64,000 nt of DNA from an archaeon. Lineage in GTDB: Archaea > Nanobdellota > Nanobdellia > Woesearchaeales > UBA9642. Below are positions 1,201 to 58,992 of this stretch, one piece after another. The notes below the pieces were generated by a model. It made no database searches and was not told the DNA's origin. It worked only from the letters and a program-made list of their open reading frames with translations. Position 1 is the stretch's first letter. Every line of letters begins with the position of its first letter. The stretch spans positions 70,138 through 134,137 of the forward strand of contig JAZDHK010000001.1 in the NCBI GenBank assembly GCA_043806035.1, written 5' to 3'. The position numbers and the translations under genes were made by a program.

Positions 1201-1803
1201 TCAGTGTACGATATTGACATACGTTCCCAAAGGAACCTGCTCGTACAGGTCGATGATGTCCTTGTTGCTTGCACGTATACACCCGTCGGAGTGCGGCTGT
1301 CCCAACGACCATTCAAGATTCGTGCCGTGAATGTAAATGCCTCTTTTTGCCGTTCCTTCGTTCTGTTCTTCCACACCGCAAATTTGTAGAAGCCTGGTGA
1401 TGACTACGGGCTTTGCTTTGTTTTTCTCTGTGTAGACAGGAACTGATTCGTCACAGAGCTTGGCCTTCCTGAGCACGCGTCCTACCGATGCATCATCTCC
1501 TGCTTTGGTGCAGATCATGTGAATGCCAGGAGGTGTTTTGTGACTGGCGACGCCATTACCGATCCCGTTTCTGCCCGTCGAGACCTGCACTTCTTTGTCG
1601 ATAATGATGCTGTCCTGTTCTGCATGGACGAGATACAATTTTTGTTCCTTGCCAAGGATGATGATTGCAGGATCGCCTTCAGGTATGGAAACTGCTGCAT
1701 CGATGGTTGTATACGCTGCCTTGATGCGAGCATAGGCTGTTTCTTGTCCTGACAGCTTTCCTGGATAGAGCATGAGTGCAGCAAGGAGCAGTTCACGAAG
1801 CAT
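1201..1803 (-). CDS. Secreted YkuD-family L,D-transpeptidase-like protein
   Basis: N-terminal hydrophobic signal; VSTG, KTPPG and catalytic IHGT...HSDGCIR motifs. Confidence 0.85.
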   Translation of the reverse strand: MLRELLLAALMLYPGKLSGQETAYARIKAAYTTIDAAVSIPEGDPAIIILGKEQKLYLVHAEQDSIIIDKEVQVSTGRNGIGNGVASHKTPPGIHMICTKAGDDASVGRVLRKAKLCDESVPVYTEKNKAKPVVITRLLQICGVEEQNEGTAKRGIYIHGTNLEWSLGQPHSDGCIRASNKDIIDLYEQVPLGTYVNIVH

Positions 1804-1934
1804 GCGTGCATGAACTGCTTTCTCCTTTTAAATTTGTTGCTCTCTCTTTTTTGCTTGTCTGTGTTTTGTCGGCAATCTCTCATGACTGCTTATAGCAAGG
1901 TTTAAATATCACTCTGCGATAACAACAAACAGAG

Positions 1935-3038
1935 GTGAGGGGGGATGGTGTGGAGGATTTGCATAGCGCCTACGTGCTCCTGATTAAGGCAAAATCTCCC
2001 GAAGACATTTTCGGGACGCTCGCAGAAAAAAACGATCAGGAAAAGAAGGATGCGCTTAAAGACCGTTATCGTGATTTAGCCATGCGTGTGCATCCAGACA
2101 GGTATGCCAAGGATCCAAAAAGCCTTCACGAAGCGGAAGAGGCAATCAAAGCACTCAACGACCTGCATGCCTGGGCCGAACAGGCGATCGATGCAGGCAC
2201 GTACGGAACGAGACAACGACCTCCTTCCCCTAACAATGTCATCGCAACGTTCGAGCATAACGGCGATCTCTATCGCCTCTTCTCTAACAGCATAGAAGGT
2301 GATTTCGGCATCATTTCATTCGGAGAACGCATCCGCAACGGTGACGTTGAAGACATCTGCCTCAAGACGGCAAAAGAACAAGAAGACAATGATTTGCTGA
2401 AAAACGAACAGCGCATCCTCAAAGAAATCCAGCACAAATCACTGCCTCTCTATCTCGATGCCATCCTCCTCGAAGATGGAACTCCCGCAACGGTGCTGCG
2501 AAAGATAAGCAACAGCTATGACCTCCTGACGGTCAAGGAGCACTTCCCGCAAGGACTGCCCCAAGAGCATGCCGTGTGGGTGCTTGATAGGTTGCTGAGC
2601 GTTCTTGGATACTTGCACATCAACAATACCATCCACGGGGCAATAGAGCCAGGCAACATCATGATCACGCCGTACAACCATAATGGTTTGCTTATCGACT
2701 ACTTGCTTGCCGTCCCTGACGCGCACACAGCTGGTGCAGCCTACAAAGGGCTGAACGAGTACAGCGCACCAGAACTCACGAAACGAGCACGGCCACATCC
2801 CGCAGCAGACATGTACGCTCTGGGAAAAACAATGGTGTTCTTGCTCGGCGGGCAAGACACCGACCTGCCAGACCAGGTTAATCCGCACATTCAATCGTTC
2901 ATCAAAAAATTCCTAGTCAAAGATCCTGCGCGACGAGAAAGTGATGCGTGGCAGGCATGGCATGAACTCAAAAATCTCAGGCAAGAGGTTTTCGGAGCGC
3001 CAAGCCAATTTTTGACATTAACTATAGGAGGGAGATAA
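1935..3038 (+). CDS. J-domain (HPD) fused to an atypical Ser/Thr kinase-like domain
   Basis: RYRDLAMRVHPDRY J-domain motif; kinase motifs ICLK, HGAIEPGN (catalytic Asp replaced), LIDY, YSAPE, DMYALG; start uncertain. Confidence 0.8.
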   Translation: MRGDGVEDLHSAYVLLIKAKSPEDIFGTLAEKNDQEKKDALKDRYRDLAMRVHPDRYAKDPKSLHEAEEAIKALNDLHAWAEQAIDAGTYGTRQRPPSPNNVIATFEHNGDLYRLFSNSIEGDFGIISFGERIRNGDVEDICLKTAKEQEDNDLLKNEQRILKEIQHKSLPLYLDAILLEDGTPATVLRKISNSYDLLTVKEHFPQGLPQEHAVWVLDRLLSVLGYLHINNTIHGAIEPGNIMITPYNHNGLLIDYLLAVPDAHTAGAAYKGLNEYSAPELTKRARPHPAADMYALGKTMVFLLGGQDTDLPDQVNPHIQSFIKKFLVKDPARRESDAWQAWHELKNLRQEVFGAPSQFLTLTIGGR

Positions 3039-4012
3039 TGGGTGGATCGAGCTATGATCGGGACGTTGGCAGATCGTCATCGTCAGGAAGTTTTTGCAGA
3101 GGCAGCACATCGAGCAATACGGCAAAGTCAGCAATGAGCAGCAGCACGGCAACAAAAGACACAGATCCGAAGTTCAAGCGGGTTGAGTCAAAGAAAAAAA
3201 GCCCCATCGTCTTTGCCTTGGACGTTACGGGCTCGAACATAGAGTTTGCGCGCATCGTGTACGACAAAGCGCCGATGCTGCACGGCCAGATCGAGAAGCA
3301 AGGCTACCTGAAAGACTTTGACATCTGCTTTGCCGCAGTCGGTGATGCATACAGTGACCATTATCCCTTGCAAGTGTGCGACTTCAAGCACGGCATCGCT
3401 CTCGATGAACAGCTGAAGAAACTTTACTTGGAAGGAAACGGCGGGGGCCAGCAGACTGAGTCTTATGAAGTTGCAGCCCACTATTTCAGCGAGCGATGCT
3501 CCATGCCGAATGCGGAGATGCCGTTCTTTTTCTTCATCGGCGATGAAGCACCATACCCTTCACTTGATGCGGCTATTGCTAAGAAGACATTAGGCTTGAA
3601 TTTGAAGCAGGACATCCCTTCAAAAGAAGTCTTTGACAGCCTGTTCGAGAAGTTCAAGAACAACGTGTACTTCCTGCAGAACCCCTATTGTGGTAGGAGG
3701 TCTGAAGATGGCTACACGAGAAGCATCCGTACTGCATGGCAGACCTTCTTTAACCCATATGTGCAAAACATCCTTCCCGTGCATGAAGAGAAAGCAGTTA
3801 TCGATATTATCTTGGGGGCTATCGCCATAACTTCCAAGAGCAGAGATCTCGAAGCATACTTGAAGGATATGCAGGACAGGGAACAGACGGCAAAACGCAT
3901 AGCTACCGTTGGCAAAAGTCTCACTGACTTAAGCAAGGCACTGGTTCCTGTCTCGCACGCAAAGCCCACAGTAGCGAAAAGCAAGAAGAATAGTGGAGGC
4001 AAGAGGTTCTGA
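3038..4012 (+). CDS. vWA-domain protein
   Basis: MIDAS-like DVTGS, GGGQQTESYE, FFIGDE; Ser/Gly-rich N-terminus; TAATG overlap with upstream gene. Confidence 0.8.
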   Translation: MGGSSYDRDVGRSSSSGSFCRGSTSSNTAKSAMSSSTATKDTDPKFKRVESKKKSPIVFALDVTGSNIEFARIVYDKAPMLHGQIEKQGYLKDFDICFAAVGDAYSDHYPLQVCDFKHGIALDEQLKKLYLEGNGGGQQTESYEVAAHYFSERCSMPNAEMPFFFFIGDEAPYPSLDAAIAKKTLGLNLKQDIPSKEVFDSLFEKFKNNVYFLQNPYCGRRSEDGYTRSIRTAWQTFFNPYVQNILPVHEEKAVIDIILGAIAITSKSRDLEAYLKDMQDREQTAKRIATVGKSLTDLSKALVPVSHAKPTVAKSKKNSGGKRF

Positions 4013-4926
4013 TGCTCATAGCAACCCTTCCTTCAGCAAGCAAGACGAGCCTCATCGAGAGGATGTATAGTCATCCTCTCCTTGACGGTGCGCGATACAA
4101 TGTGGGCATGCGTGAAACGCATTCAACGGAGGAAATCGTGCAGCATCTGAAAGAAATTGCTGAGCAGCACAAGAAGAAACTCTGGATGGATCTCAAAGGC
4201 AGGCAATTGCGCATCACCAAATGGGCAGACCCCACGTACGGGGATATTGAGCTAAGCCACGAAATTGCTGTCGACCTTCCCGCAACCATCGTCTTCAGGG
4301 GCAGCGACCAATCACGTATCGTCAGCATCGCAGAGAACAGGATTGTCGTCGATCCCGACCCAAAATACGCGCTCGGCGCGGGACAGGCAGTGAACATCCT
4401 TGGCAAGAATTTTTCTATCAAGGGCAGCTATCTTACCGAGCATGACAAGCACTTCATCCTCGCGGCAAAGAAAGAAGGCATCCATGACTACATGCTTTCC
4501 TTCGTCGAACGCAACGAGGACATTGCTGAAGTACTTGCGTTGGACCCTGAAGCGCGGTGCGTGCTGAAGATAGAAAGCCTACCGGGACTTGCGTATGTTA
4601 GGGAAAAGTACACATTTGCTGATGGTCAGCTCATGGCAGCCAGAGATGATCTGCTCGTGCACATCGGCGAGAACAAATCAGCAATGCTTCCCGCACTCGA
4701 CCTCATCATCCGCAAGGATCCTGAGGCGATTGCAGCATCGCAACTCTTCACGTCACTATTGGAAGGAAGATTGTCCATGCCTGACGTTGCGGACGTCAAG
4801 CTCTTGCACGAAATGAGATACAAGCACTTCATGCTGAGCGATGAAGTCTCCCACAAATGCTTTACTGAAGCAATGACTGCCTGGCAGGACTTCCAGAACG
4901 TCTATGCAAAGGTCCACCATGACTGA
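4012..4926 (+). CDS. Divergent pyruvate kinase-like protein (barrel and B domain, no C-terminal regulatory domain)
   Basis: DLKGRQLR, SFVE, LKIES, AARDDL, ASQLFTS and MLSDE align with PK motifs DLxGPKIR, SFV, KIE, VARGDL, ATQMLES and MLSGE; TGATG overlap. Confidence 0.75.
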   Translation: MLIATLPSASKTSLIERMYSHPLLDGARYNVGMRETHSTEEIVQHLKEIAEQHKKKLWMDLKGRQLRITKWADPTYGDIELSHEIAVDLPATIVFRGSDQSRIVSIAENRIVVDPDPKYALGAGQAVNILGKNFSIKGSYLTEHDKHFILAAKKEGIHDYMLSFVERNEDIAEVLALDPEARCVLKIESLPGLAYVREKYTFADGQLMAARDDLLVHIGENKSAMLPALDLIIRKDPEAIAASQLFTSLLEGRLSMPDVADVKLLHEMRYKHFMLSDEVSHKCFTEAMTAWQDFQNVYAKVHHD

Positions 4927-6202
4927 CGCATACGTCGTTGTAGGTCTGGGCTTTGGCGATGAGGGTAAAGGCAGTGTTGTTGATTATCTTGCTGCAGAGC
5001 ACAGTGCGGGATGCGTCGTGCGGTATAACGGCGGCCCGCAGGCAGCACACCATGTCATGCATGAAGGGAAGGTACATTGCTTCAGCCAGTTCGGGTCTGG
5101 GACGTTTGCAGGATCAAAAACTCACCTCTCGCAATACATGCTCGTCGAGCCCTTCGCGCTATTAGTAGAGGAAGAAGCACTACGCACGTTCAAAATCCCT
5201 TTTGATCTTCCTTCCTTGCACTCTGACTGTGCCATCATCACACCGTTCCAAAAATTGGCGGGACGGATGCGAGAACTCCTTCACCGATACAGTAGTTGCG
5301 GACTTGGCGTCGGAGAAGCTGTCAAGGACAAGGCAAACGGCATTGTCCTGCATGCAAAAGATCTTTTTGATGAAGCACTACTCCGGCACCAACTCACCTA
5401 CATTCGTCAAGTAAAACTTGACCAGGCAGAGCAGCTTCTTGAAGAAAAAAACACGCTGGCCGTTGCTACAGAACTCAACAAAACATACGCGAGCATGAGA
5501 ACGCTCTCACTTGACGAGCTCACGCGGCAGTATCAAGCATTCGCTGCTCGTGCAACTCTTTGCGATGCAATTCCCGACGACACGTTAATCTTCGAGGGAG
5601 CGCAAGGTGTGCTGCTCGACAGAACACACGGCTTTCCACCCTTTGTAACGAAAATGACGACCACTGCTGACCTTGCAAAGCGTTTGTCAACGAAGGAACA
5701 GATACGCATCGGCGTTTTGCGTGCCTACCTAACGAGACACGGCAACGGTCCTTTCCCGACAGAAGACGCAACACTTGGAGAATGCATTCCTGATTTGCAT
5801 AATGGCACACACCCCTGGCAAGGCACGTTCAGGATAGGCTGGCCTGACTTGGTACTGTTCCGTTACGCGCAGCAACTCGCCAAGGTAGATGTCCTTGCAC
5901 TAACCAATATCGACCGCCTGCCAGAGAAGATACGTGTGTGCAACGCCTATGTGTATTCGGGAAAGGAAAGCCTTGCAGGATACATGGAAGGAGAGAAGCA
6001 AGGCGGGAGCATGATTATCCATACACTCCTTCCGCAGCCGGAAACGAGAAGGCAAGAGCAGCTCACGAAATTACTGTTCCAGTGTGAACCGGTATATACC
6101 TCGCTTTCTGTCGACGACTATCTTGCGCAGCTCGACCAGCTATGCCCAATTAGCATCATCTCGACAGGACCTGAACGAAAAGACAAATGTAGGTATGCAT
6201 AG
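4919..6202 (+). CDS. Divergent adenylosuccinate synthetase (PurA)-like protein
   Basis: GDEGKG, GGPQAAH, EGAQGVLLD, YLTRHGNGPFPTE and STGP motifs; Asp-binding TTGRxR loop absent. Confidence 0.85.
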   Translation: MTDAYVVVGLGFGDEGKGSVVDYLAAEHSAGCVVRYNGGPQAAHHVMHEGKVHCFSQFGSGTFAGSKTHLSQYMLVEPFALLVEEEALRTFKIPFDLPSLHSDCAIITPFQKLAGRMRELLHRYSSCGLGVGEAVKDKANGIVLHAKDLFDEALLRHQLTYIRQVKLDQAEQLLEEKNTLAVATELNKTYASMRTLSLDELTRQYQAFAARATLCDAIPDDTLIFEGAQGVLLDRTHGFPPFVTKMTTTADLAKRLSTKEQIRIGVLRAYLTRHGNGPFPTEDATLGECIPDLHNGTHPWQGTFRIGWPDLVLFRYAQQLAKVDVLALTNIDRLPEKIRVCNAYVYSGKESLAGYMEGEKQGGSMIIHTLLPQPETRRQEQLTKLLFQCEPVYTSLSVDDYLAQLDQLCPISIISTGPERKDKCRYA

Positions 6203-6252
6203 CCCCGCCCGGGGGCTGAGGGTACCGCCTATCTGAAGGGACTCGATAATTG

Positions 6253-6990
6253 CTATTTATCCGTTTTGTGAGATTTCTGCCAAAGCTGATCGAAGATTTG
6301 TCGCATGACGTTGCTGAATTCTACATCTTGGACTATGACACCGTGAGGATCCGTGTAGTTGACGAAACCCACTTTGTCATGATAGATGAAGGTGGAACTA
6401 TCGATGAACGCTGTTCCTGGCAAGGTGCGTACTTCTGAATTGGTCGCTTTGTCGCTCTTCGCAAATGCCTTCTCTGAAGGCACATCGGAGAGCAAGGTGC
6501 GAGAGAAGACCTTGTTTTCTTTTTTCTTGCGATAGTAAATGGAGATGTATGGCTGGGAGAATTCGAGCCACTTTTGACCGCCTCCTAGGATGCGGATGTC
6601 CTCGTTCGGCTTAGCTATGATGTCGTTGTGGACGACCTCTATTGCGCGTCTACCTTCATAGAATTCGACGTTCCTAGCGGGCTGTTGCATCATGGTGAGC
6701 TTGTTGAGTTCTGGGATAATGAGTGCGAGCCGGTCTCGTTTCTGCTCCATGAGATTGAGAAGATCTTGGGGCTGCAAGGCTTGGAACGTTTTCTCTCCTT
6801 TTCGTTGGGTTTTGGACACTAGGCCCTTGCTCATGAGTGAGTCGAGGATGCTGTAGACGGTGGTCCTGATGATGCCTGTTCTCTGAGCAATTTCTTTGAC
6901 GGTGCTGCCTTCTTTCTTGAGGCATTCGAGGAAGACGGTGACCTCGCTGTCGTACAAACCGAGCTCCTGTAGGGCGCTGAAGTCATTCAT
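6253..6990 (-). CDS. TrmB-family transcriptional regulator
   Basis: LQELGL...E..VF, EIAQRTGIIRTTVYSILDSLMSKGLV HTH, VEFYEG linker, C-terminal effector domain ending FDQLW. Confidence 0.85.
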   Translation of the reverse strand: MNDFSALQELGLYDSEVTVFLECLKKEGSTVKEIAQRTGIIRTTVYSILDSLMSKGLVSKTQRKGEKTFQALQPQDLLNLMEQKRDRLALIIPELNKLTMMQQPARNVEFYEGRRAIEVVHNDIIAKPNEDIRILGGGQKWLEFSQPYISIYYRKKKENKVFSRTLLSDVPSEKAFAKSDKATNSEVRTLPGTAFIDSSTFIYHDKVGFVNYTDPHGVIVQDVEFSNVMRQIFDQLWQKSHKTDK

Positions 6991-8897: not shown

Positions 8898-9317
8898 ATG
8901 CAGCCGTACGAGTTTTTCGACCACACAGCAGACACGCTGTTCAAGGCGCACGGCAAGAATCTCGAGGAAGCGTTCGCCAACGCAGCACGAGCACTCACCT
9001 CACTCATGGTGGATCCCACACAGGTCAAGGAAGTCGAACGCAGAACGATCAACGTGCAAGGCTACGACCTTAAAGCACTGCTCTACAATTTTCTCGAGCA
9101 CTTCCTGATACTTGTCGACGCGGAAGGATTCATCATGCACGATCTTGAACATGTGGCCATCAAGCGCGGCAAGACTTTCGAACTGATCGCCTCAGTGACC
9201 GGTGATACTGTACGTAACTACGCTCCTGAAATGCATATCAAAGCCATAACATACAACGACATGCATATTGATGAGAACGAACAACAGGCAACCGTCCAGG
9301 TCGTTGTGGATTTGTAA
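8898..9317 (+). CDS. Archease
   Basis: YEFFDHTAD N-terminus, IKAITY, C-terminal VVVDL; adjacent to rtcB. Confidence 0.95.
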   Translation: MQPYEFFDHTADTLFKAHGKNLEEAFANAARALTSLMVDPTQVKEVERRTINVQGYDLKALLYNFLEHFLILVDAEGFIMHDLEHVAIKRGKTFELIASVTGDTVRNYAPEMHIKAITYNDMHIDENEQQATVQVVVDL

Positions 9318-9333
9318 TGCTCTGTGTGAGAAC

Positions 9334-12174
9334 ATGACCGACACAAACAGAATCAACTCCTACACGGTAGAATTGCCGCAGCACGACAAGATGCACGTCC
9401 CAGGCATAGTCTTTGCCAGCCCCATCCTTTTTGAGAAAATCCAGCAGGACAAGACTCTGGAACAGGTGCGGAACGTCGCCTGTCTGCCGGGCATCATCAA
9501 GTGGAGCATCGCCATGCCCGATGCCCATCAAGGCTATGGCTTTCCCATCGGTGGCGTGGCCGCGTTTGATTATGACACAGGCATCATTTCTCCAGGAGGT
9601 GTCGGATATGATATTAATTGTCTTCTTCCAGGAACCAACGTCTTGTGCGAACTTGGATACACTACACCCATAGAGCAGATAGGGAACGCATTGCCTGTCG
9701 AAATCACCTCGAACGGTTTCGGGCTTGCATTTGTCCACAGCGGCATCTGTGTGCGCACACTGGGTGCAGAAGCTGCAAAACCTGTCGCTGCGTTCATGAA
9801 AAAGAAATCGGACAGACGCGTTTTTGAAGTGAAGACCAGAACTGGATTGCAGCTTGCGTGCTCGGAAGACCACCCTATTTTCACCTCGCAGGGCATGATT
9901 GAAGCAGGACTGCTTGTTCCTGGAACAAACGTCGCAGTGTCTTATTTTGAGGGCATTCCCTATCAAAAAAGCGAGTGGAAAGACGAGACGGATATGGGAA
10001 TTGTGGCGAAAGTTTTCGGCTACATGCTCGGTGATGGCAGCCTCACAAGATGGCGGAACAAGTATTGCATCCGTGTTTATGGCAAAGAAACGGACATGGC
10101 ACGAATGCAGAAGGATCTTGCCAGAATAGGCATCAACTCACGCTACACAAAGATATCGCGCAATCATCGCATAACAACACAATATGGCGAGAAGACGTTC
10201 AGAGGAACCACTACTGAGCTCAGGATCTACTCCAAGAAATTTGCTGAACGGCTGCTCACATTAGGATTTCCTTTGGGAAACAAGACAGATAAACCATACA
10301 GGATTCCTGCCTGGGTTGTGGATGCTCCATTGTGGATTGTACGACTTTTCCTGGCAGGCTTTTTCGGAGCAGAATTGAGCTCGCCTTCAACACATAGCAA
10401 GACAGGGTTCTATGCACCAATACTGAGCCAGAACAAAAGTGCGCGACTTGAGGAGGTGGGTAGAGAGTTCTTGATAGATATCATGCAGCTTCTCGAGAGA
10501 TTCGGAGTGAAGGTGACCACCATTGCAAGCAGACAGGAGCATCCGAACAAACAAGGAAAGGTGATTCGGCTACGCCTTGAACTTGGCGCAGAAGAGGAGA
10601 ACCTGCTCGCTCTATGGCGCAAGATAGGATTTGAGTACAATGCGGAGCGTAGCTTATGCGCAGAGATTGCCTGCAAGTACATACTGCAGAAAAAACGACT
10701 GCAGTCAACTCGGGCAATGATCTCGTTTCGTGTGCGGGAACTCAAAAAGCAGGGCTTGCGGTTGGCCGAGGTGCAACGGCTTTTGGTGCGGCAAGGCGTG
10801 GCGAACGCAAGATTCATTGAGCGACAGTATTATGAGTGTGCTGGTCAGAGAATAACCCTCGATTTCCCATCGTTTGCAGCATTCGCAAAGGAGCAAGCAG
10901 AACGTTATGCCGTTGCAGGAACGCTCTTTGATGTCATTGAGTCTGTAAACATCATGAACTATGAGGGAGATGTCTACGACATTACCGTGGACACGACGCA
11001 TAATTTCTTTGCCAACGGCTTTGTGGTGTCCAACTGCGGCGTTCGTCTGCTCAGCACGCCTTTCACAACAAAAGACCTCGAGGGGAAAAAGCAGCAATTG
11101 CTCGATCGGCTCTTCAACTATGTGCCTCCTGGCGTGGGCAGAGACAGTCACGTCAAACTCACCAAAGAAGACCTAAAAGAAGTGCTCAATACGGGCATCA
11201 CGTGGTGCATCGCGCACGGCTACGCGACGAAAGAAGACGCGCAGCGTATCGAAGAACAGGGCAGCATGAGTTCTGCCAATGCGGAAATGGTGTCTGACAC
11301 GGCATTGTCGCGAGGCATCAAGCAATTGGGGACGCTCGGTAGCGGCAACCACTTCCTCGAACTGCAGCTCGTCGACAAAATACTGGACAAGAACACGGCC
11401 AATGCTTTCGGTATACGTCATGAAGGACAAGTCGTCATCATGATTCACTGCGGCTCACGAGGCCTGGGGCATCAGGTGTGCAGTGACTACCTCAAAAAAA
11501 TGGAACAAGAATACGGGACGAGCCACCTGCCCGACAGGGAATTGACGAATGCACCATTCCATTCCGTGCTGGGCCAGCAGTACTACAAGGCCATGTGCGC
11601 AGCAATGAATTTTGCGTTCTGCAACCGGCAGCTCATCACGCATTTCGTCAGAAAGGCTTGCAAGGATGTCCTCGGCAGCGATGAAAACATTGACATCGTG
11701 TATGATGTCTGCCACAACATCGCCAAAGTCGAACAACATCTCATCGACGGCGTGCAGAGAAAAGTCATCGTCCACCGCAAGGGCGCGACGAGAAGCTTCG
11801 GTCCAGGCAGGGAGGAAATTCCTGCTGTGTATCGTGCTCTCGGCCAGCCTATCCTGATCCCTGGCAGCATGGGGACGGCAAGCTACGTCCTTGTCGGGAC
11901 GGCAAAGGCAGAGGCATTGAGTTTTGGCAGCACGGCGCACGGTGCAGGCAGGGTCGCATCACGTACGTACGCACGCGCCACCGTTACTGGCGAAGAAGTG
12001 ACGAGAGAGCTTGCCGCGAAAGGCATACTCATCAAAGGGGCGTCGAAGAAAGGCATCGCGGAAGAAGCCCCTGCATTCTATAAGGATGTCGATGAAGTCG
12101 TCCGAGTCAGTCATGAGGCAGGCATTGGCAATATCGTTGCACGATTGATCCCTGTTGGTGTCGTGAAAGGGTAG
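9334..12174 (+). CDS. rtcB: RtcB tRNA-splicing ligase containing an intein
   Basis: MPDAHQGYGFPIGG, GYDIN/CGVR, GTLGSGNHFLE, HCGSRG, HRKGAT, PGSMG, HGAGR and final KG motifs. Confidence 0.95.
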   Translation: MTDTNRINSYTVELPQHDKMHVPGIVFASPILFEKIQQDKTLEQVRNVACLPGIIKWSIAMPDAHQGYGFPIGGVAAFDYDTGIISPGGVGYDINCLLPGTNVLCELGYTTPIEQIGNALPVEITSNGFGLAFVHSGICVRTLGAEAAKPVAAFMKKKSDRRVFEVKTRTGLQLACSEDHPIFTSQGMIEAGLLVPGTNVAVSYFEGIPYQKSEWKDETDMGIVAKVFGYMLGDGSLTRWRNKYCIRVYGKETDMARMQKDLARIGINSRYTKISRNHRITTQYGEKTFRGTTTELRIYSKKFAERLLTLGFPLGNKTDKPYRIPAWVVDAPLWIVRLFLAGFFGAELSSPSTHSKTGFYAPILSQNKSARLEEVGREFLIDIMQLLERFGVKVTTIASRQEHPNKQGKVIRLRLELGAEEENLLALWRKIGFEYNAERSLCAEIACKYILQKKRLQSTRAMISFRVRELKKQGLRLAEVQRLLVRQGVANARFIERQYYECAGQRITLDFPSFAAFAKEQAERYAVAGTLFDVIESVNIMNYEGDVYDITVDTTHNFFANGFVVSNCGVRLLSTPFTTKDLEGKKQQLLDRLFNYVPPGVGRDSHVKLTKEDLKEVLNTGITWCIAHGYATKEDAQRIEEQGSMSSANAEMVSDTALSRGIKQLGTLGSGNHFLELQLVDKILDKNTANAFGIRHEGQVVIMIHCGSRGLGHQVCSDYLKKMEQEYGTSHLPDRELTNAPFHSVLGQQYYKAMCAAMNFAFCNRQLITHFVRKACKDVLGSDENIDIVYDVCHNIAKVEQHLIDGVQRKVIVHRKGATRSFGPGREEIPAVYRALGQPILIPGSMGTASYVLVGTAKAEALSFGSTAHGAGRVASRTYARATVTGEEVTRELAAKGILIKGASKKGIAEEAPAFYKDVDEVVRVSHEAGIGNIVARLIPVGVVKG
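9619..11034 (+). mobile_element. Intein (472 aa) with LAGLIDADG-type homing endonuclease in rtcB
   Basis: Starts CLLPGT, block B CSEDHPI, endonuclease blocks FGYMLGDGS and FLAGFFGAE, ends HNFFANGFVVSN followed by extein Cys. Confidence 0.92.
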
Positions 12175-12246
12175 TGCATTGTTTTTTTGTTCTTTTACTT
12201 TTTTGTTTGCCCCTGTTTTAGCACGCACCAATGTATCACATTATAA

Positions 12247-12262
12247 AGTATACTAGTATACT
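12247..12262. promoter_or_regulatory. Perfect 16-bp palindrome, possible operator
   Basis: AGTATACTAGTATACT upstream of the TATA of the 12325 gene. Confidence 0.35.
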
Positions 12263-12324
12263 ATTTTATATATTAGCATACGTAAATAGAAAATTTTATA
12301 TAGTTCGACATCTTAACAGAGTGC

Positions 12325-12648
12325 ATGTCACTCACTACCTTACTGAGAAGAAGCAGCTACGAGGCAGGCAACACACTCGAGCTGCACCGTAAGTACACCT
12401 TCCTCGAGGACGTCGCTGTCGTGACAGAGAAGAAAAAAGAAAGTACTGACTGTTCCTTCGTCTTTTCAGGAAAACACACGTGGGAGGTATATGATAAAAC
12501 GACCGCGTACAACGTCGGCGATAAAGTACGCGTCCTGTATGCTCTTGCCCGGCATTACATCAAAGATTATCTCCCTCCTGATTTCACAGAGAAAAAAACA
12601 ATACGGGACATGACCGACAGATTCTACATCAACATCATCAAATGCTAA
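12325..12648 (+). CDS. Hypothetical protein (possible OB-like fold)
   Basis: 107-aa ORF after BRE/TATA (GAAAATTTTATATA); YNVGDKVRVLY motif. Confidence 0.6.
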   Translation: MSLTTLLRRSSYEAGNTLELHRKYTFLEDVAVVTEKKKESTDCSFVFSGKHTWEVYDKTTAYNVGDKVRVLYALARHYIKDYLPPDFTEKKTIRDMTDRFYINIIKC

Positions 12649-13911: not shown

Positions 13912-14916
13912 GTGACACATGTATCCAAAGGACGGGAACCAATACGCTTTCCCACCGAAAGTGTGAAAGAGAAGCAATGTACGGGCTATGTGCTCACTGC
14001 AGAGAACGCATCCAACGCAAGCAAACATCCACTTGTCATCTATGTACACGGGTTAGGGGGAAACGCTGCTGCAGAAGCGACAAGACAGTTTACTGATTAT
14101 TTTCGTGTGCACGCCATAACGAGCTTGGCGTTGAACCTGCCGGGGCATGGTGAACCTGCATTCATGAGTGCAGGCAGTAAGGAATCAGCGCTCCGTCTCG
14201 ACGCAAATGTTGCCTGCGTTAAGAAAGCAATAGAGTATGCGGCCTCTCGACAAGATATCCTTCTCGAAAAAATATATTTGTATGGAACGGGTTCTGGAGG
14301 TCCCATTGCACTCGCCACTGCAGTTCAGGATGAACGTATCAAAGCAGTAGCCACGAGATCATGCCTGCTCGACGTCCTGAACAATACTGCTGTGCACAAG
14401 ATGATTCACGGCATGTTTGATCCTCGTGGAACAAAACACCTTTCTAACCCACACTTCACGGCAGACATCATCCATGACATGCTCCCCCCTGCGGCTGATG
14501 GAGAATTCTCCTACATTACGCAGTGCGCAAAACAGCTCAAGGAACGACACCTGCCAGTCATGTATTGTTTCAGCACGTACGATCAATACATCCCTCTCGA
14601 ACACCAACTGCGACTCGCACAAGATCTCTGCATTCCCACAGCGTATCTCGAGGCAATGATTGAAGTCATGCAGAACCATTCTCGAAACCAGTCTGATGAT
14701 GATATTCTTAGACGAGAGGAGCTGCTCATGAACAAAGGCGTCTCTCTCGCGAACGGCATCATGGACCTCAACCCCTATCATGACACGATCATTTGGAGGG
14801 AGTATTTTGGTGCTGACAATCCTATGGACAATAAAATAAGCAAAAAAAGAAATTACTTCGAGAATGTCATAAAGAACGTCACCGCATTCTTCATCAAGCA
14901 AATAGAAAACATTTAG
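13912..14916 (+). CDS. Alpha/beta-hydrolase-fold protein
   Basis: IYVHGLGG, NLPGHG, elbow LYGTGSGG, DQYIP. Confidence 0.7.
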   Translation: MTHVSKGREPIRFPTESVKEKQCTGYVLTAENASNASKHPLVIYVHGLGGNAAAEATRQFTDYFRVHAITSLALNLPGHGEPAFMSAGSKESALRLDANVACVKKAIEYAASRQDILLEKIYLYGTGSGGPIALATAVQDERIKAVATRSCLLDVLNNTAVHKMIHGMFDPRGTKHLSNPHFTADIIHDMLPPAADGEFSYITQCAKQLKERHLPVMYCFSTYDQYIPLEHQLRLAQDLCIPTAYLEAMIEVMQNHSRNQSDDDILRREELLMNKGVSLANGIMDLNPYHDTIIWREYFGADNPMDNKISKKRNYFENVIKNVTAFFIKQIENI

Positions 14917-15020
14917 GCGATCTCTGCAAGGTATTTTTGGTATTCTCGTTCCTCTCCAGGCAAGATGAGCCGTTTTTCTTGCAGTATTTTGAGGACGTCT
15001 CTCGTGTAGCTCTCTTTCAT
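14913..15020 (-). CDS. Micro-ORF, 35 aa (MKESYTRDVLKILQEKRLILPGEEREYQKYLAEIA)
   Basis: ATGA overlap with upstream micro-ORF; GGGTGAG SD-like site. Confidence 0.5.
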   Translation of the reverse strand: MKESYTRDVLKILQEKRLILPGEEREYQKYLAEIA

Positions 15021-15148
15021 GGTCTCACCCATTGGTCGCTGAACTGATAGTCAAAGGACTTGTGCCAGTCCTTTCCTTTCACGCTCAGCTGTCGCAGCTG
15101 CTGGAAGCAGAGCTGTTCGATGAATGCGGTATTTTCATGAGGTTGCAT
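15017..15148 (-). CDS. Micro-ORF, 43 aa (MQPHENTAFIEQLCFQQLRQLSVKGKDWHKSFDYQFSDQWVRP)
   Basis: AAGGTGA SD a few nt upstream; follows a structured leader and TATA. Confidence 0.5.
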   Translation of the reverse strand: MQPHENTAFIEQLCFQQLRQLSVKGKDWHKSFDYQFSDQWVRP

Positions 15149-15160
15149 AGTTTCACCTTT

Positions 15161-15250
15161 GGGATCAAACCGCCGGAACGGGCACGTGGCATGCTGGAAG
15201 ACTGGGCTTCTTACGCTCTGGGGAAAGCGCCATTCCGGCTTTGACCATCC
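15161..15250 (-). ncRNA. Putative structured leader RNA (four-way junction)
   Basis: GGAT..GTCAAA/TTTGATCC and GCCGGAATGG/CCGTTCCGGC stems enclosing three short hairpins; begins about 22 nt downstream of TATA-like ATATAAATAC. Confidence 0.45.
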
Positions 15251-15501
15251 TAGTACAATCAGGGTGAGTTGTATTTATATGCGCTGCGCGAGGTTGTCCA
15301 GTGGTTTTTCCGCCGTGTTGCACTGTCTAGAACTACAAGGAAACAGGAAATCAACAGAAATTTGGCTTCGTGTCCAGTGCTAGAAAACCTGCAATTAACA
15401 ACTTATGTGAACTAGATTCTGTGCACATACCTAATTTATAGGGAGACAATTTCCAGAGATATCTTGCTTTTTTACACACTGAAAATCGTTGACTTCACGC
15501 T

Positions 15502-16281
15502 CTAGCCGAACGCGCCGTTCAAATAATCTTTTGTGAGCTTGTCTTTTGGTTTGCTGAAAAGCTGTTTCGTTGGTCCGTACTCGACCAGCTTGCCGTGCAG
15601 CAAGTACGCGGTGTAATCGCTGATGCGTCTCGCCTGGTGCATGTTGTGCGTCACGATGATGATGGTCTTCTCTTCCTTCAGTTTAATCAGCAACCTCTCT
15701 ATTTTTGCCGTCGCGATAGGGTCGAGTGCGGAACACGGCTCATCCAGCAGAATGACATCGGGCTGTATGGCCAGAGCGCGGGCAATGCAAAGACGCTGCT
15801 GCTGGCCACCAGAAAGCTTGAATGCAGACACGTGCAGCTTATCCTTGACCTCCTCCCAAAGGTCTGCCTTCTCGAGGCTCTGCCGCACTATTCTTTCAAT
15901 ATAGTCTTTGCTTGCGTGCTGCAATCGTACACCATATGCGACATTCTCGAAAACACTCATGGGAAAAGGATTGGGTTTCTGAAATACCATGCCGATATTC
16001 CTGCGTAATTCCACCACATCTGTTGTGGGTAGCAAGATGTTCTTGCGCCGGTAGAGAATGTTTCCCCTGACTTTTGCCGAGAGGACGAGATCGTTCATGC
16101 GATTGAGGCAGCGAAGCAATGTGGATTTGCCGCAGCCTGACGGGCCGATGAGTGCAGTGATCTTCTTTTTTGGGATGACCATGCTGACCTCGTACAGGAT
16201 CTGTTTCTCGTCATACCACACACTTACCTTGTGCAGTAGGAGGCGCTGCTGAGCGAGTGGGTCGAGCAATGCATCTACCAT
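15502..16281 (-). CDS. pstB: Phosphate ABC transporter ATPase
   Basis: GPSGCGKST, FQKPNPFP, LSGGQQQRLCIARAL, DEPCSALDP. Confidence 0.97.
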   Translation of the reverse strand: MVDALLDPLAQQRLLLHKVSVWYDEKQILYEVSMVIPKKKITALIGPSGCGKSTLLRCLNRMNDLVLSAKVRGNILYRRKNILLPTTDVVELRRNIGMVFQKPNPFPMSVFENVAYGVRLQHASKDYIERIVRQSLEKADLWEEVKDKLHVSAFKLSGGQQQRLCIARALAIQPDVILLDEPCSALDPIATAKIERLLIKLKEEKTIIIVTHNMHQARRISDYTAYLLHGKLVEYGPTKQLFSKPKDKLTKDYLNGAFG

Positions 16282-16285
16282 GTGA

Positions 16286-17164
16286 TCACCATTCTTTTTT
16301 CTTTCGTAACCTGTGCCTGATGAGGAATGCGCCTATGTTGAGCAAGGAGGTGAGCAGGATGAGCACGAGCGCCGTGCCGAGCGCGTACTGCATGGCTGAT
16401 GCATCTGCATGCTGCGTTGCAAGGATGAACGCATGATAGGGCAGAGCCATGAACTTGTCCAATGGAGAGAATGAAATGTAACCCATGTAGAACGTTGCTC
16501 CTACTATGATAATGGGTGCAGTCTCCCCCATCGCGCGGGACATGCCGAGGATACCTCCCGTGAGCATGCCTCCGCTCGCATGCGGCAATACATTTTTGTG
16601 TATCGTCTGCCACTGCGTCGCTCCAAGAGCAAGGCTGCCTTCCCTAAATCCTGCAGGAACTGTCTTGAGCGCCTCCTCGCTTGCCGTGATGATCCAAGGC
16701 AGTGTCATGCAGCTGAGCGTGAGAATTGCAGCGAGCAACGACGTCCCCAAATGAAGAGAAAGCACAAAAAATGCGAGGCCGAACACGCCGTAGATAACGC
16801 TCGGCACACCAGCCAAATTTCTTACAGAAAGCGCAATGATTCTGCGGAACAGCGTATCCTTGGCGTACTCGTTGAGATAGATCGCTGTTGCCATGCCTAT
16901 CGGCAGAGTAACCACGACGACGCCAATGCAGAGGAAGACCGTGCCGATGATTGCCTGGATGATGCCTCCCTTGGCAATATTTTGATGTGACCAGATATTT
17001 GTGAGGAAGTGCCAGCTCATCACTGAAGATCCCTTGATGAGAAGATAGGCGAGCACGAGCAGCAGGATGATTAATGAGAGGAATGCAGCTGCGCGAAAGA
17101 GAAAAAAATAGATGCGTTGTCGTGCTTGTTCGTCGATGAAAGGATGCACTGCACTGCCTTTCAT
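16286..17164 (-). CDS. pstA: Phosphate ABC transporter permease
   Basis: AIYLNEY, LAGVPSVIYG, EGSLALGAT, RAMGETAP. Confidence 0.95.
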   Translation of the reverse strand: MKGSAVHPFIDEQARQRIYFFLFRAAAFLSLIILLLVLAYLLIKGSSVMSWHFLTNIWSHQNIAKGGIIQAIIGTVFLCIGVVVVTLPIGMATAIYLNEYAKDTLFRRIIALSVRNLAGVPSVIYGVFGLAFFVLSLHLGTSLLAAILTLSCMTLPWIITASEEALKTVPAGFREGSLALGATQWQTIHKNVLPHASGGMLTGGILGMSRAMGETAPIIIVGATFYMGYISFSPLDKFMALPYHAFILATQHADASAMQYALGTALVLILLTSLLNIGAFLIRHRLRKKKEW

Positions 17165-17174
17165 GCGAGCACAC

Positions 17175-18074
17175 TCACCATTTGTGCCTCCTGATCTGCC
17201 GATCAAGAATAAGATCTGCTATGAGATTGACAAGGAACGTCATGAGGAAGAGCACGATGGCGATGGCGAACAACGCCTGATAGTGCAGGCTTCCCTGGAC
17301 GACTTCCTTGATCTCGATGGCGATGTTTGCCGTCATAGGACGAACGGCGTCGAAAAACGAATGCGGAAAGGCAAGCGCGTTGCCCGCGAGCATGAGCACT
17401 GCCATGGTCTCTCCTACTGCCCTGCCGAGGCCGAGCATGACTGCGGCGATGATGCCCGAGCTTGCAGCTGGCAGCAAGGTCATGCGTATGGTCTGCCAAT
17501 GGCTCGCACCAAGAGCGAGGCTAGCTTCCTTGAACTCATTTGGGAGGGCAGTGAGGACGTCCTCGCTTATGCTGATGATGGTGGGCAGGACCATGATGGA
17601 CACAATGATGCTGGCGGTGAGCGCGTTCAATCCTGATGATAAGCCGAAGAGTGCAGCAATTGCAGGAGCGAGCACGATCAAGCCGAGCAGGCCAAGCACA
17701 ACAGAGGGTATGCCTGCAATCATCTCAATGACTGGCTTGATGACCTCTCGTGTTTTTGGAGAGGCAATCTCTGCAAGGTAGATTGCGCTTGCAATGCCCA
17801 AGGGTATGGCAAATGCCATCGCACCTATCGTCGTCAGCAGCGTTCCTACAATCATACCGGTGATGCCCCAGCCCTTATCATACCCATCAGGATTCCATTT
17901 TGTGCCGAAGAACTCTCCTAACGGAATGTGCTGGAATGCCTGTATTCCTGTTGTGAAGAGAAAAATAAAGATGCCGCATAGCACCAGCAACGCTGAAATG
18001 CTGACGACGGCAAAAAAAAGTCTTACCTTATCCAAGACTCTCGACCACGGCGACATTCTTGCGGATATCTTCAT
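17175..18074 (-). CDS. pstC: Phosphate ABC transporter permease
   Basis: AIYLAE, AGIPSVVLG, EASLALGAS, GRAVGETMAV; start may be 18056. Confidence 0.95.
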   Translation of the reverse strand: MKISARMSPWSRVLDKVRLFFAVVSISALLVLCGIFIFLFTTGIQAFQHIPLGEFFGTKWNPDGYDKGWGITGMIVGTLLTTIGAMAFAIPLGIASAIYLAEIASPKTREVIKPVIEMIAGIPSVVLGLLGLIVLAPAIAALFGLSSGLNALTASIIVSIMVLPTIISISEDVLTALPNEFKEASLALGASHWQTIRMTLLPAASSGIIAAVMLGLGRAVGETMAVLMLAGNALAFPHSFFDAVRPMTANIAIEIKEVVQGSLHYQALFAIAIVLFLMTFLVNLIADLILDRQIRRHKW

Positions 18075-57606: not shown

Positions 57607-58992
57607 CTATTCCACGACTGCTATCTGCATCGTGTCTGTCGTTCCTGTCTTTGTCCCTGACACGACGACGACTTGCGTTTCTTTCGGAATGAGATTATTC
57701 GCAGATACATACTGCAACGATTCTTTGACGAGAGAAGACCTATTGAGCTCTGCATGATACGCTTGCACGCCCCACACGGCGTTCAGTTGTCGTGCGATAA
57801 CCTCGTCGGGAGTTAACGCGATGATGGGAACGTCAAGCCTGAATCTCGCCACGCGTTGTGTCGTGTATCCTGATGTCGTCGGAGTGATGATGGCTCCGAT
57901 GCCATTCGTACGAACTGCAGCATCCACTGCGCCGCTTACGACATCTTCAGGAGTGTTGCCAAGATAAGGAATGATTCTATCTGCCAGTTCTCGTGACCTG
58001 CCCGAATTCTTGAAATACAGCTCTGCTCGTTCTAGCGTCTTGTTCATGACGTCTATTGCTTCAACAGGATATTGTCCGACGCTCGTTTCTCCCGAAAGCA
58101 TGACTACGTCAGTCCCGTCGAGAACGGCGTTGAATATGTCGCTCACTTCTGCCCGTTTTGGTTCGAGGCCATTCATCATGCTCTCGAGCATCTGCGTCGC
58201 AGTTATCACCATTTTCCCTGCACGGTTGCATTTGCTGATCATCATTTTCTGCTGTTCAGGGACGTATATCGGCCCTATCTCCATTCCTAAATCCCCCCGT
58301 GCAACCATGACCGCATCCGTGTATTCCAAGATTGCATCGAAGTTCTTCAATCCTTCAGGATTCTCGATTTTTGCGATGATTTTTATCTTGCTGTCTCCCA
58401 TGTGTGTGCGCAGTTCCTTGAGATTGTCCGCGTTTTGGGTGAATGATGCGGAGACATAATCGACTCCTTGCTGTACTAAGAAATCCAGATTTGCCTTATC
58501 TTTTGCTGATAGGAACTGCATGGGCACGTATGCTTCGGGGATATTCACTCCTTTTCGTGATTCCAACTGCATGCCGAACAGTACATTCGTGTAGATGATC
58601 TTGTCCTTGATATCTGTTACTTGCAGTCCTACTGCGCCATCATTAATCAAGAGCATGTTGCCTGGCGCTACATGCTTATAGACGTGCTCCACTTGAATGG
58701 GAACACATCCTTCCGGGCATTCGCTTTGCGGGGCTATCTTCACTCCTTGCCCTTTCTCGATGGGCAGCGGTTGTGCTAGTGTGCCGAGCCTGATTTTTGG
58801 ACCTTCAAGGTCTGCGGCAATGAACGCGTACGGCGCCTTTTTCCGTATGTCAGAAATCAGTTTTGCTGCAGGACCATACTCCTTGACGTGGCTCATGTTT
58901 ATCCTGAACCCGTCAAGTCCTGCACGGATCATGTCCTCAAGCTTATCCCAGGAGGCAGGACCGAGCGTTGCCAGGATTTTTGTCTTTGCCAT
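57607..58992 (-). CDS. pyk: Pyruvate kinase
   Basis: TKILATLGPAS, RINMSH, DLEGPKIR, KIEN, MVARGDLG, TATQMLESM, MLSGETS, plus C-terminal domain. Confidence 0.97.
   Translation of the reverse strand: MAKTKILATLGPASWDKLEDMIRAGLDGFRINMSHVKEYGPAAKLISDIRKKAPYAFIAADLEGPKIRLGTLAQPLPIEKGQGVKIAPQSECPEGCVPIQVEHVYKHVAPGNMLLINDGAVGLQVTDIKDKIIYTNVLFGMQLESRKGVNIPEAYVPMQFLSAKDKANLDFLVQQGVDYVSASFTQNADNLKELRTHMGDSKIKIIAKIENPEGLKNFDAILEYTDAVMVARGDLGMEIGPIYVPEQQKMMISKCNRAGKMVITATQMLESMMNGLEPKRAEVSDIFNAVLDGTDVVMLSGETSVGQYPVEAIDVMNKTLERAELYFKNSGRSRELADRIIPYLGNTPEDVVSGAVDAAVRTNGIGAIITPTTSGYTTQRVARFRLDVPIIALTPDEVIARQLNAVWGVQAYHAELNRSSLVKESLQYVSANNLIPKETQVVVVSGTKTGTTDTMQIAVVE

Follow-up and report, generated by a model that had tools for sequence, protein, structure and literature searches.

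What would a prokaryotic cell gain from keeping in one overlapping row the genes for a kinase-like protein with a J-domain, a von Willebrand factor A (vWA) protein, a relative of pyruvate kinase (PK) and a relative of adenylosuccinate synthetase (PurA)? The question is raised by a 64,000-nt stretch of contig JAZDHK010000001.1 from an archaeon of the order Woesearchaeales, here called the window, in which the locus under study occupies positions 1935-6202 and the four genes are named KIN, VWA, PKL and PURAL. A preliminary description of this DNA had read them as a coupled operon that might form a new nucleotide-based defence or stress system. We find that they belong to a module that appears to be widespread, mobile and undescribed, new as a system and built throughout from known folds. 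We propose, with not quite even confidence, that a vWA protein and an ATP-driven remodeller control two nucleotide enzymes feeding adenylate or nicotinamide adenine dinucleotide (NAD) pools, a role in defence being less likely.

The four genes look like a single unit of transcription and translation because they share one strand, their stop and start codons overlap, and the flanking genes (YkuD and radical-SAM/SPASM open reading frames (ORFs) upstream, a TrmB-like regulator downstream) lie on the other strand. The junctions stand in the sequence as the preliminary description had given them. KIN and VWA share one base between TAA and ATG (TAATG, read as ...GAGATAATGGG), VWA and PKL share one base between TGA and ATG (TGATG, read as ...TTCTGATGCTC), and at the PKL/PURAL junction (ATGACTGA) the ATG at 4919 overlaps the PKL stop codon at 4924-4926 by 8 nt. 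GGAGG-like motifs are found 5' of the VWA and PKL starts, that is, before the second and third genes.

The second protein, VWA, had to be identified by its fold, as no match to it was obtained among Pfam, NCBIfam or PDB sequence models; a PDB sequence search with a VWA profile returned a single match, to DksA, which at E 0.14 was rejected as chance. Its AlphaFold2 model (pLDDT 85.6, pTM 0.85), used as a Foldseek query, matched integrin beta-I domains and I-domains/vWA domains in 159 chains with E<=1e-3 (best E 5.8e-6, probability 1.00). A sequence resembling a metal-ion-dependent adhesion site (MIDAS), D62-x-T64-G65-S66, is invariant, as are D103 and D169, and on the evidence of the model VWA is a vWA/MIDAS-domain protein. 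It begins with a disordered motif, MGGSSYDRDV (3038-3067 in the window), and ends in a basic tail. The N-termini of vWA proteins adjoining PURAL follow the acidic pattern MGG(G/S)xYD(R/G)DV, with phage versions MGSGAW.. and MGGATW.., and those of triads lacking PURAL read MSESGDYDPGPW or MYxWG. The motif resembles an integrin ligand, and the difference between the two types may reflect clade history rather than function. Predictions of a PKL-VWA complex from two alignment sets both scored 0.00, a result with no bearing on binding either way.

KIN combines two domains. Its kinase domain is recognized by Pfam Pkinase (E 1.6e-13), and the region in front of it scores 24.9 bits against Pfam DnaJ, below the threshold of 27.8. 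A profile built from 21 KIN N-termini matched 81 solved J-domains (best E 7.9e-10), and the residues of the HPD motif, H53, P54 and D55, are invariant or nearly so; judged by this profile, the N-terminus is a true J-domain. One Hsp70 is encoded in the genome of the window (760 bits). In an alignment of 26 KIN relatives the VAIK lysine (K144) and the alphaC glutamate (E158) are invariant. The aspartate of the HRD motif is replaced by alanine in the window (HGAIEPGN), by serine in several archaeal-type loci and by asparagine in most other four-gene loci, and the DFG aspartate is also lost in several Clostridia loci. Because of these replacements, KIN of the four-gene type is predicted to be a catalytically dead pseudokinase. 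The kinases of related three-gene sets without PURAL mostly read H-G-D, with H-C-D and H-S-D variants, and keep the catalytic aspartate.

PKL passes the Pfam threshold for PK (PF00224, E 4e-11, 43 bits vs 30) over part of the barrel only, and its profile aligns to residues 6-334 of PykF, covering the A and B domains (E 1.3e-19). It falls far below the NCBIfam cut-offs for PK (59.1 bits vs 432 for TIGR01064 and 48.1 vs 306.4 for PRK05826) and by these curated thresholds is not a functional PK. R28, N30, D60, K62, R67, K186, E188 and D213 show no variation across 20 sequences, and the DxKGxQxR, KIE and ARxDL motifs of the PK A domain are retained; we take the aligned residues to have the catalytic roles of their PK counterparts. 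The protein ends at 304 aa, directly past the barrel, and so lacks the C-terminal allosteric/tetramer domain. The homologues of comparable length listed by the search span 207-351 aa, and among 5157 candidates no fused or longer form was found at E<=1e-10, which is weak evidence.

PURAL is the most readily recognized of the four. It matches PF00709 (E 2.7e-60, 204.7 bits), and its family aligns to solved PurA structures (E 6.4e-77), with a score against the NCBIfam PurA equivalog of 184 bits where the cut-off is 402; by curated thresholds it is not a functional PurA. The P-loop GDEGKG, the residues aligned with H41 and Q224, the guanine aspartate and S-x-GP vary little or not at all across 22 sequences. 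We take H41 and Q224 to be catalytic in PurA and the aspartate to specify guanine. The segment that contains T300, T301, R303 and R305, presumably the aspartate-binding loop of PurA, has become N.WQG.F (N.WQG.F-R). TTGRGIGP has become SCGLGVGE, with loss of T129 and R131, and N38 has become Q; N38, T129 and R143' are, we assume, the ligands of the 5'-phosphate of inosine monophosphate (IMP). The view in the preliminary description that the enzymes are altered at catalytic or substrate positions thus stands for KIN and PURAL and holds in part for PKL, whose catalytic core is kept, whose C-terminal domain is missing and in which one B-domain lysine is changed. Its assignments of the four proteins (atypical kinase with a J-domain, vWA protein, non-glycolytic PK paralogue and rewired PurA) are borne out by the domain, profile and fold searches.

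The genome has other genes for the housekeeping reactions. A canonical PurA on contig C5 scores 431 bits vs 204 for the copy in the window; a canonical PK lies within the window itself at ~58054-58989 (-) (315 bits), the preliminary description having placed one at 57607, and another on contig C28. PKL and PURAL should not be needed for housekeeping, since a canonical PurA and two canonical PKs are present. In five other genomes the picture divides by size: two large ones encode both canonical PurA and PURAL, and three small ones (0.9-1.8 Mb) encode PURAL only. PurB above cut-off was not found in two of these three, a gap for which genome completeness may account. These genomes fit, weakly, a PURAL product for which PurB is not required. 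A 436-aa ORF 3' of PKL at locus L026, considered as a hidden PurA-like protein, was rejected (hhalign probability 0.2%).

Is this set of genes peculiar to the window? A PKL pattern scan in which each species was represented by one genome (~185,000 species genomes) yielded 361 relatives, of which the best 80, the loci most like the PKL of the window, were analysed. At 54 of these 80 loci KIN, VWA and PURAL share the strand of PKL and lie no more than 6.5 kb from it, and VWA and PURAL are present in the absence of KIN at a further 15 (both by tblastn). The gene orders are chiefly KIN-VWA-PKL-PURAL (29 loci), PKL-PURAL-KIN-VWA (24) and VWA-PKL-PURAL (13). The loci come from Woesearchaeota and other archaeal metagenome-assembled genomes, many groups of the Candidate Phyla Radiation (CPR), Acidobacteria, Clostridia, Bacilli, Tenericutes, Leptospiraceae, Ignavibacteriales, Gammaproteobacteria, Myxococcales and Planctomycetes. 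The four genes are therefore kept together across phyla, and trios of them recur in viruses; because they are conserved neighbours in so many places, the concern of the preliminary description that the grouping might not recur elsewhere falls away.

The loci without KIN are instructive. At 10 of them a full-length AAA ATPase of ~660 aa, classical CDC48/FtsH/PAN-like with a coiled-coil-like N-terminal half, sits directly 5' of VWA (Table 1), and KIN and the ATPase occur together at one locus only (L079). Nine loci have neither, and at two of these (L103 and L107) PURAL was not found either. Six of the nine have less than 1.7 kb of upstream sequence, L069 and L107 have 8 kb, and L052 ends 1.1 kb 3' of PKL, at the site of KIN and VWA in that gene order. 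Two CPR loci contain two vWA genes, one 5' of PKL and one 5' of PURAL.

In the 1.5-Mb genome of the window itself, contigs C26 and C23 each hold a further KIN-VWA-PKL set that lacks PURAL (Table 1), and the kinases of these two sets retain the catalytic aspartate. Such triads also occur in relatives from the same order, in which PKL matches stronger than E 1e-20 were found in 11 of 61 genomes. Taken with the gene orders above, these sets suggest that KIN-VWA is the constant core of the module and that PKL and PURAL are alternative or joint partners. We found no published description of a module joining a kinase and a vWA protein to a PurA-like and/or PK-like enzyme in the main texts of papers, supplements lying outside the search. 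The vWA mentions in the accessible portion of PMC7824862 concern MoxR-vWA and TerF, and a clade that is neither PurA nor PurZ in Supplementary Fig. S8 of PMC12884076 may bear on the word undescribed.

The module is found in viruses too, where KIN-VWA-PURAL without PKL predominates. A scan with the vWA alignment gave 297 viral loci, and the best 80 include KIN-VWA-PURAL (35), VWA-PURAL (29), KIN-VWA-PKL (9) and all four genes (1), with a kinase found by clustering in 53. Among deposited phage records the vWA protein matches 213, of which 200 are Mycobacterium phages (Bxz1-like). In phage LinStu a "kinase" (gp257), a vWA-like protein (gp258), a small protein (gp259) and an "adenylosuccinate synthetase" (gp260) follow one another, and the 191-kb Vibrio phage phiKT1024 carries a vWA-like and PurA-like pair in a row with a kinase, with a NADAR gene near. 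The phage PurA-like proteins carry the PURAL signatures SCG.G, TRHG and WQG.F, and three of the four proteins match PHROGs families (3043 "kinase", 2971 unknown, and 1211). Viral and cellular sequences are interleaved in a PURAL tree, a FastTree reconstruction with one outgroup and many weak nodes (123 distinct ORFs, cellular 380-540 aa, viral 340-540 aa). In the accessible part of PMC9476963, a Ser/Thr kinase and a PurA-like gene appear among the C1-specific phams. Four of the viral KIN-VWA-PKL loci (L132, L136, L138 and L146) lie near genes for EF-G-like, R2K ATP-grasp and Pol III alpha proteins, one of the latter with an intein fragment; such neighbours are typical of very large phage genomes.

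The cellular neighbourhood gives an indication of function. The families that recur beside the module at the 80 cellular loci are a Udk-like kinase (33 loci), whose gene sits directly 5' of KIN, a NadE-NMNAT fusion (23), NrtR (11), a PncA-like isochorismatase (9) and PncB (5). Unambiguous NAD genes, one or more per locus, are present at 28 of the 80 loci by ORF clustering and at 30 by tblastn, in CPR, Acidobacteria, Gammaproteobacteria and Bacillota. A survey of 150 flanking ORFs drawn at random from 206, with the high-GC loci L095, L098-L103 and L105-L107 left out, gave NMNAT-type (9), NUDIX (8), PRK (8), NAD synthase (6) and NrtR_WHD (6) as its top Pfam families. The three-gene paralogues of Woesearchaeota-like relatives likewise lie between NadE, Nudix, NMNAT and a NAD-kinase-like gene.

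From these observations we infer a regulation between proteins in which VWA would be an adaptor and, together with an upstream ATP-driven remodelling partner, would form the constant core. The J-domain of KIN would recruit the cellular Hsp70, and in other lineages the AAA ATPase would remodel directly. The idea of a remodelling partner is put forward chiefly because the exchange of J-domain pseudokinase for AAA ATPase is near-exclusive. PKL and PURAL would be the client or effector enzymes, acting on nucleotides and switched or assembled by the vWA/remodeller pair. Because the catalytic core for phosphoenolpyruvate (PEP) and Mg is kept, PKL most likely moves phosphate from PEP, the acceptor perhaps being a nucleoside diphosphate, with regeneration of nucleoside triphosphate or GTP, or a related nucleotide. 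PURAL would most likely phosphorylate the oxo group of a purine-like nucleotide with GTP and then displace the phosphate by an amine other than aspartate. Since the module, often with the Udk-like gene, lies inside NAD-salvage operons under probable NrtR-type control in many lineages, its most likely role is to supply adenylate or NAD by producing or replenishing a pool of adenine or pyridine nucleotides.

Several observations weigh against this proposal. NAD genes stand at only 28-30 of the 80 cellular loci, and related genomes among them make the counts non-independent; the four-gene type is moreover over-represented in that sample because the loci were chosen for likeness to the PKL of the window. 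The window copy adjoins no NAD gene, its neighbours being the YkuD, radical-SAM and TrmB-like genes. The Udk-like kinase is nearer to uridine kinase (8e-36) than to nicotinamide riboside kinase (1.7e-14). At locus L022 (6086-13544) a vWA-PKL pair is followed in the same direction by genes for Ham1/ITPase, a thymidylate-synthase-like and a QueC-like protein, two unknown ORFs and an AAA_5 protein, a cluster that points to nucleotide modification in general and not to NAD. In viruses the module lies mostly among replication and translation genes, the KIN-VWA-PKL loci included, and the NMNAT and Nudix genes that precede two of the 80 viral loci are the sole NAD-type neighbours there. The chemistry raises a point as well. 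The B-domain lysine of PykF in K-G-V-N-L-P-G, to which we assume a functional role in PykF, aligns with glutamine or glutamate in PKL, so ADP or GDP may not be the phosphate acceptor.

The pool-supply proposal can be sharpened into a bolder form, which we regard as rather unlikely: PURAL would have a new activity in the PurA fold, that of a GTP-driven ligase or aminase able to restore a nucleotide of the adenine or pyridine kind in a single reaction. PKL, using PEP, would fuel it, and the vWA protein, itself remodelled by Hsp70 through the J-pseudokinase or by the AAA ATPase, would switch it. The reaction might take IMP to AMP with no need of PurB, or yield NAD from a precursor of the hypoxanthine, nicotinate or ADP-ribose type. 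The module would then constitute a third, unrelated system for the reconstitution of nucleotides or NAD+, used for salvage by symbionts with reduced genomes and, by hundreds of large phages that include Bxz1-like mycobacteriophages, for the upkeep of host pools during infection or against immunity that depletes them.

Closely allied to this, and unlikely in our estimate, is a role confined to NAD+, in which PURAL and PKL would rebuild NAD+, perhaps from ADP-ribose, after its consumption, for example by NAD-depleting immunity. The module would then provide counter-defence to phages and salvage to symbionts with reduced genomes, as an analogue of the NAD+ reconstitution pathways (NARP) made of unrelated enzymes. 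Its position between NadE-NMNAT and PncA/PncB, or behind NrtR, a repressor family responsive to ADP-ribose, speaks for this role, as do the NMNAT and Nudix genes 5' of two viral loci, the NADAR gene near the Vibrio phage copy and the abundance of the module in phages; the aromatic nucleophile loop of PURAL (W-Q-G-x-F) could, by inference, suit a pyridine base. However, the module contains nothing similar to known NAD-forming enzymes, the chemistry of PurA targets an aromatic C6-oxo group and not an anomeric carbon, and the window copy and 78 of the 80 viral loci lack NAD neighbours. The PncA, PncB, NMNAT and NadE of the same operons, moreover, already make up a complete salvage route.

The defence or stress role raised by the preliminary description we now consider quite unlikely. 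In it, the kinase and vWA protein would detect an infection, and the two enzymes, PurA-like and PK-like, would either drain a pool or produce a nucleotide that is toxic or acts as a signal. Conflict systems often contain AAA, vWA and kinase parts, and the kinase domain of KIN resembles the PD-T4-6, MkoA and MADS6 models (E 2e-15 to 1.6e-13). The patchy occurrence across phyla (strong PKL matches in the 11 of 61 relatives, 361 loci in all the species genomes) and the interleaving of viral and cellular PURAL in the rough tree would also suit such a system. The flanks do not: a check for defence enrichment in the 150 flanking proteins with PADLOC gave four IetA-type AAA and three DpdF-type helicase matches and no other family more than twice, and the four IetA matches are the AAA variant of the module itself. 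In PADLOC-DB 2.0, VWA, PKL and PURAL have no match and KIN matches generic kinase models only. The recurrent neighbours are instead NAD-salvage genes, hundreds of phage contigs and cultured lytic phages carry the module, the kinase of the four-gene type is predicted to be dead, and no toxin-type effector is recognizable.

A PurZ-like route to a modified purine for DNA or RNA, such as an N6-substituted adenine, is very doubtful. In this route the monophosphate would come from the Udk-like kinase, the substituent would be attached by PURAL, and PKL would phosphorylate the product as far as the triphosphate. PurZ itself offers a precedent for a repurposed phage PurA, as the accessible portion of PMC12884076 describes. 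PURAL fits PHROG 1211 better than canonical models, its distribution is dominated by phages, its aspartate loop is replaced, and the nucleotide genes beside the vWA-PKL pair of L022 would be at home in such a pathway. Yet the cellular copies lie in NAD operons of organisms without known modified genomes, the flanks show no recurrent partner that is a dedicated dNTPase or polymerase, the module has no nucleoside monophosphate kinase, and the need for a vWA adaptor with a J-domain or AAA partner is left unexplained.

That PKL and PURAL are ordinary isozymes, a spare PK and a spare PurA fallen by chance beside an unrelated kinase/vWA pair, is highly improbable: both pass Pfam family thresholds and PURAL is the only PurA homologue in three small genomes, but the four genes stay together at 54 of 80 loci in many phyla and in two conserved orders, the scores lie far under the equivalog cut-offs (184 vs 402 and 59 vs 432), the aspartate loop and the PK C-terminal domain are gone, canonical PurA and two PKs are encoded in the same genome, and two PURAL-only genomes show no PurB above cut-off.

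The features of the locus and of its relatives are collected in Table 1.

Table 1. Coordinates of the module and its signals in the window, and of related loci elsewhere
Feature	Position	Strand	Details
TATA-box-like archaeal motif TTTAAATA	1901..1908	+	27 nt 5' of GTG 1935; read from sequence
KIN: J-domain (~aa 20-90) and Hanks-type pseudokinase (predicted; ~aa 113-354)	1935..3038	+	367 aa, GTG start; second in-frame GTG start possible at 1950; Pfam and profile search
VWA: integrin-beta-I-like vWA protein	3038..4012	+	324 aa; AlphaFold2 model and fold search; PHROG 2971, E 6e-34
PKL: minimal PK-like protein of A and B domains, without C-terminal domain	4012..4926	+	304 aa; Pfam, profile alignment
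PURAL: PurA paralogue, aspartate loop replaced	4919..6202	+	427 aa from internal ATG 4919; ORF open already from ATG 4904 (4904-6202, 432 aa); PF00709; PHROG 1211, E 8.5e-63
GC-rich hairpin over PURAL stop codon	6200..6218	+	in convergent gap to TrmB-like gene
KIN-VWA-PKL paralogue, contig C26	~9800-12500 (= L015 5832-8543)	-	between NadE, Nudix, NMNAT and NAD-kinase-like genes
KIN-VWA-PKL paralogue, contig C23	~14200-17300 (= L016 3710-6816)		alpha/beta hydrolase gene follows
AAA ATPase in place of KIN			L083, L087, L088, L091, L095, L098-L101, L105

From its sequence and position, the TATA-box-like motif is a candidate promoter of the unit. The hairpin may be a terminator; it has a 7-bp GC stem and a minimum free energy of -25.4 kcal/mol (z -1.79), a weak signal that 13 of 200 shuffles equal. 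GC content is ~0.49-0.52 across 2001-6500 of the window and 0.43-0.47 on the immediate flanks, a modest difference that alone is no evidence of transfer. The upstream neighbour at 1201-1803 (-) encodes a protein with a YkuD L,D-transpeptidase domain (E 5.8e-16) in a genome otherwise archaeal-looking (TrmB and RtcB/archease are present, and the closest relatives of the module are from Woesearchaeota). Further along the window, an RtcB ORF of 968 aa at 9268-12174 (+) has an apparent intein-sized insertion (...GYDIN|CLLPGTN ... FVVSN|CGVRLL...), and a small archease-like ORF at 8898-9317 (+) lies just 5' of it and overlaps its start.

If the pool-supply proposal is correct, several hundred species of bacteria and archaea and hundreds of phage genomes carry a module that has so far been overlooked and whose parts are annotated singly as "pyruvate kinase", "adenylosuccinate synthetase", "kinase" or "hypothetical". 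PURAL would define a third functional PurA clade beside PurA and PurZ, PKL would define a minimal family of PK-like phosphotransferases, and the exchange of J-domain pseudokinase for AAA ATPase would be the first such interchange of partners for a vWA adaptor of metabolic enzymes. In metabolic reconstructions of CPR and DPANN organisms these genes are at present counted as the PK of glycolysis and the PurA of purine synthesis, and the NAD-operon context is relevant to those reconstructions. How phages manage nucleotide and NAD pools is a question to which the phage copies are relevant, and these can be tested directly in cultured, non-pathogenic systems such as cluster C1 mycobacteriophages on M. 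smegmatis. In calling the system conserved and novel the preliminary description was right; the link to NAD salvage, the phage distribution, the J-pseudokinase/AAA exchange and the KIN-VWA core are additions to it.

How does the module compare with systems already described? The TerY-P triad, to which the preliminary description had linked it, reportedly consists, after Anantharaman, Iyer and Aravind in 2012, of the vWA protein TerY, a PP2C phosphatase and a Ser/Thr kinase. The two are alike in coupling a vWA/MIDAS protein genetically to a Hanks-type kinase fold and in forming a mobile, patchy unit. Unlike the triad, the module has no PP2C or Ter genes and always comes with a PK-like enzyme, a PurA-like enzyme or both. 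Its kinase is predicted to be dead and bears a J-domain, or else an AAA ATPase stands in its place. PP2C_2 and TerD gave no match in the window's own genome (93.7% complete), and both are absent from the 25 commonest Pfam families of the 150 flanking proteins; membership in the TerY-P/Ter systems is therefore rejected.

PurZ is the 2-aminoadenylosuccinate synthase of the phage 2-aminoadenine pathway. With PurA, PurZ and PurZ0, PURAL shares the fold, the P-loop and, presumably, a GTP-type phosphoryl activation, and like PurZ it is a repurposed PurA carried by phages. The accessible portion of PMC12884076 covers 481 phage PurA homologues and sets the PurZ group by a serine at Asp13, a position at which PURAL keeps aspartate. 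PURAL also scores only 30.4 bits vs 300 against NF038379, and with the Asp of GDEGKG kept, membership in PurZ is rejected; the analogy drawn in the preliminary description holds as a precedent and no further. The PURAL loop, with N.WQG.F in place of T300/T301/R303/R305, differs from both PurA and PurZ, and its partners are a vWA protein and a kinase, not DatZ, MazZ or DpoZ. PKL has the A-domain TIM barrel, the inserted B domain and the Arg/Asn, DxKG..R, K-I-E and A-R-x-D-L residues of PK; it differs in stopping at 304 aa without the C-terminal allosteric domain and in always being paired with a vWA gene.

Osterman et al. are said to have described in 2024 the phage NAD+ reconstitution pathways NARP1 and NARP2. 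These resemble the module as sets of enzymes borne by phages and cells and tied to NAD metabolism, and NMNAT and Nudix genes stand beside two of the viral copies. In contrast to NARP1 and NARP2, none of the four proteins is Prs-like, NAMPT-like or NadV, and the formation of NAD is here hypothetical.

The nearest parallel lies with enzyme activases. AAA+ and vWA proteins form activase pairs such as the MoxR-vWA pairs CbbQ-CbbO and NorQ-NorD, and Midasin. In these, as in the module, the gene of a vWA/MIDAS adaptor stands beside those of an ATP-driven remodeller and a client enzyme, and at 10 loci the module has an AAA ATPase in that very place. Unlike the MoxR-vWA pairs, the ATPase of the module is a classical CDC48/FtsH/PAN type, gives way at most loci to a J-domain pseudokinase, which would make use of Hsp70, and would act on nucleotide enzymes as its clients. 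In its working the module would come nearest to an AAA/vWA enzyme-activase pair that has been coupled to repurposed enzymes of core metabolism.

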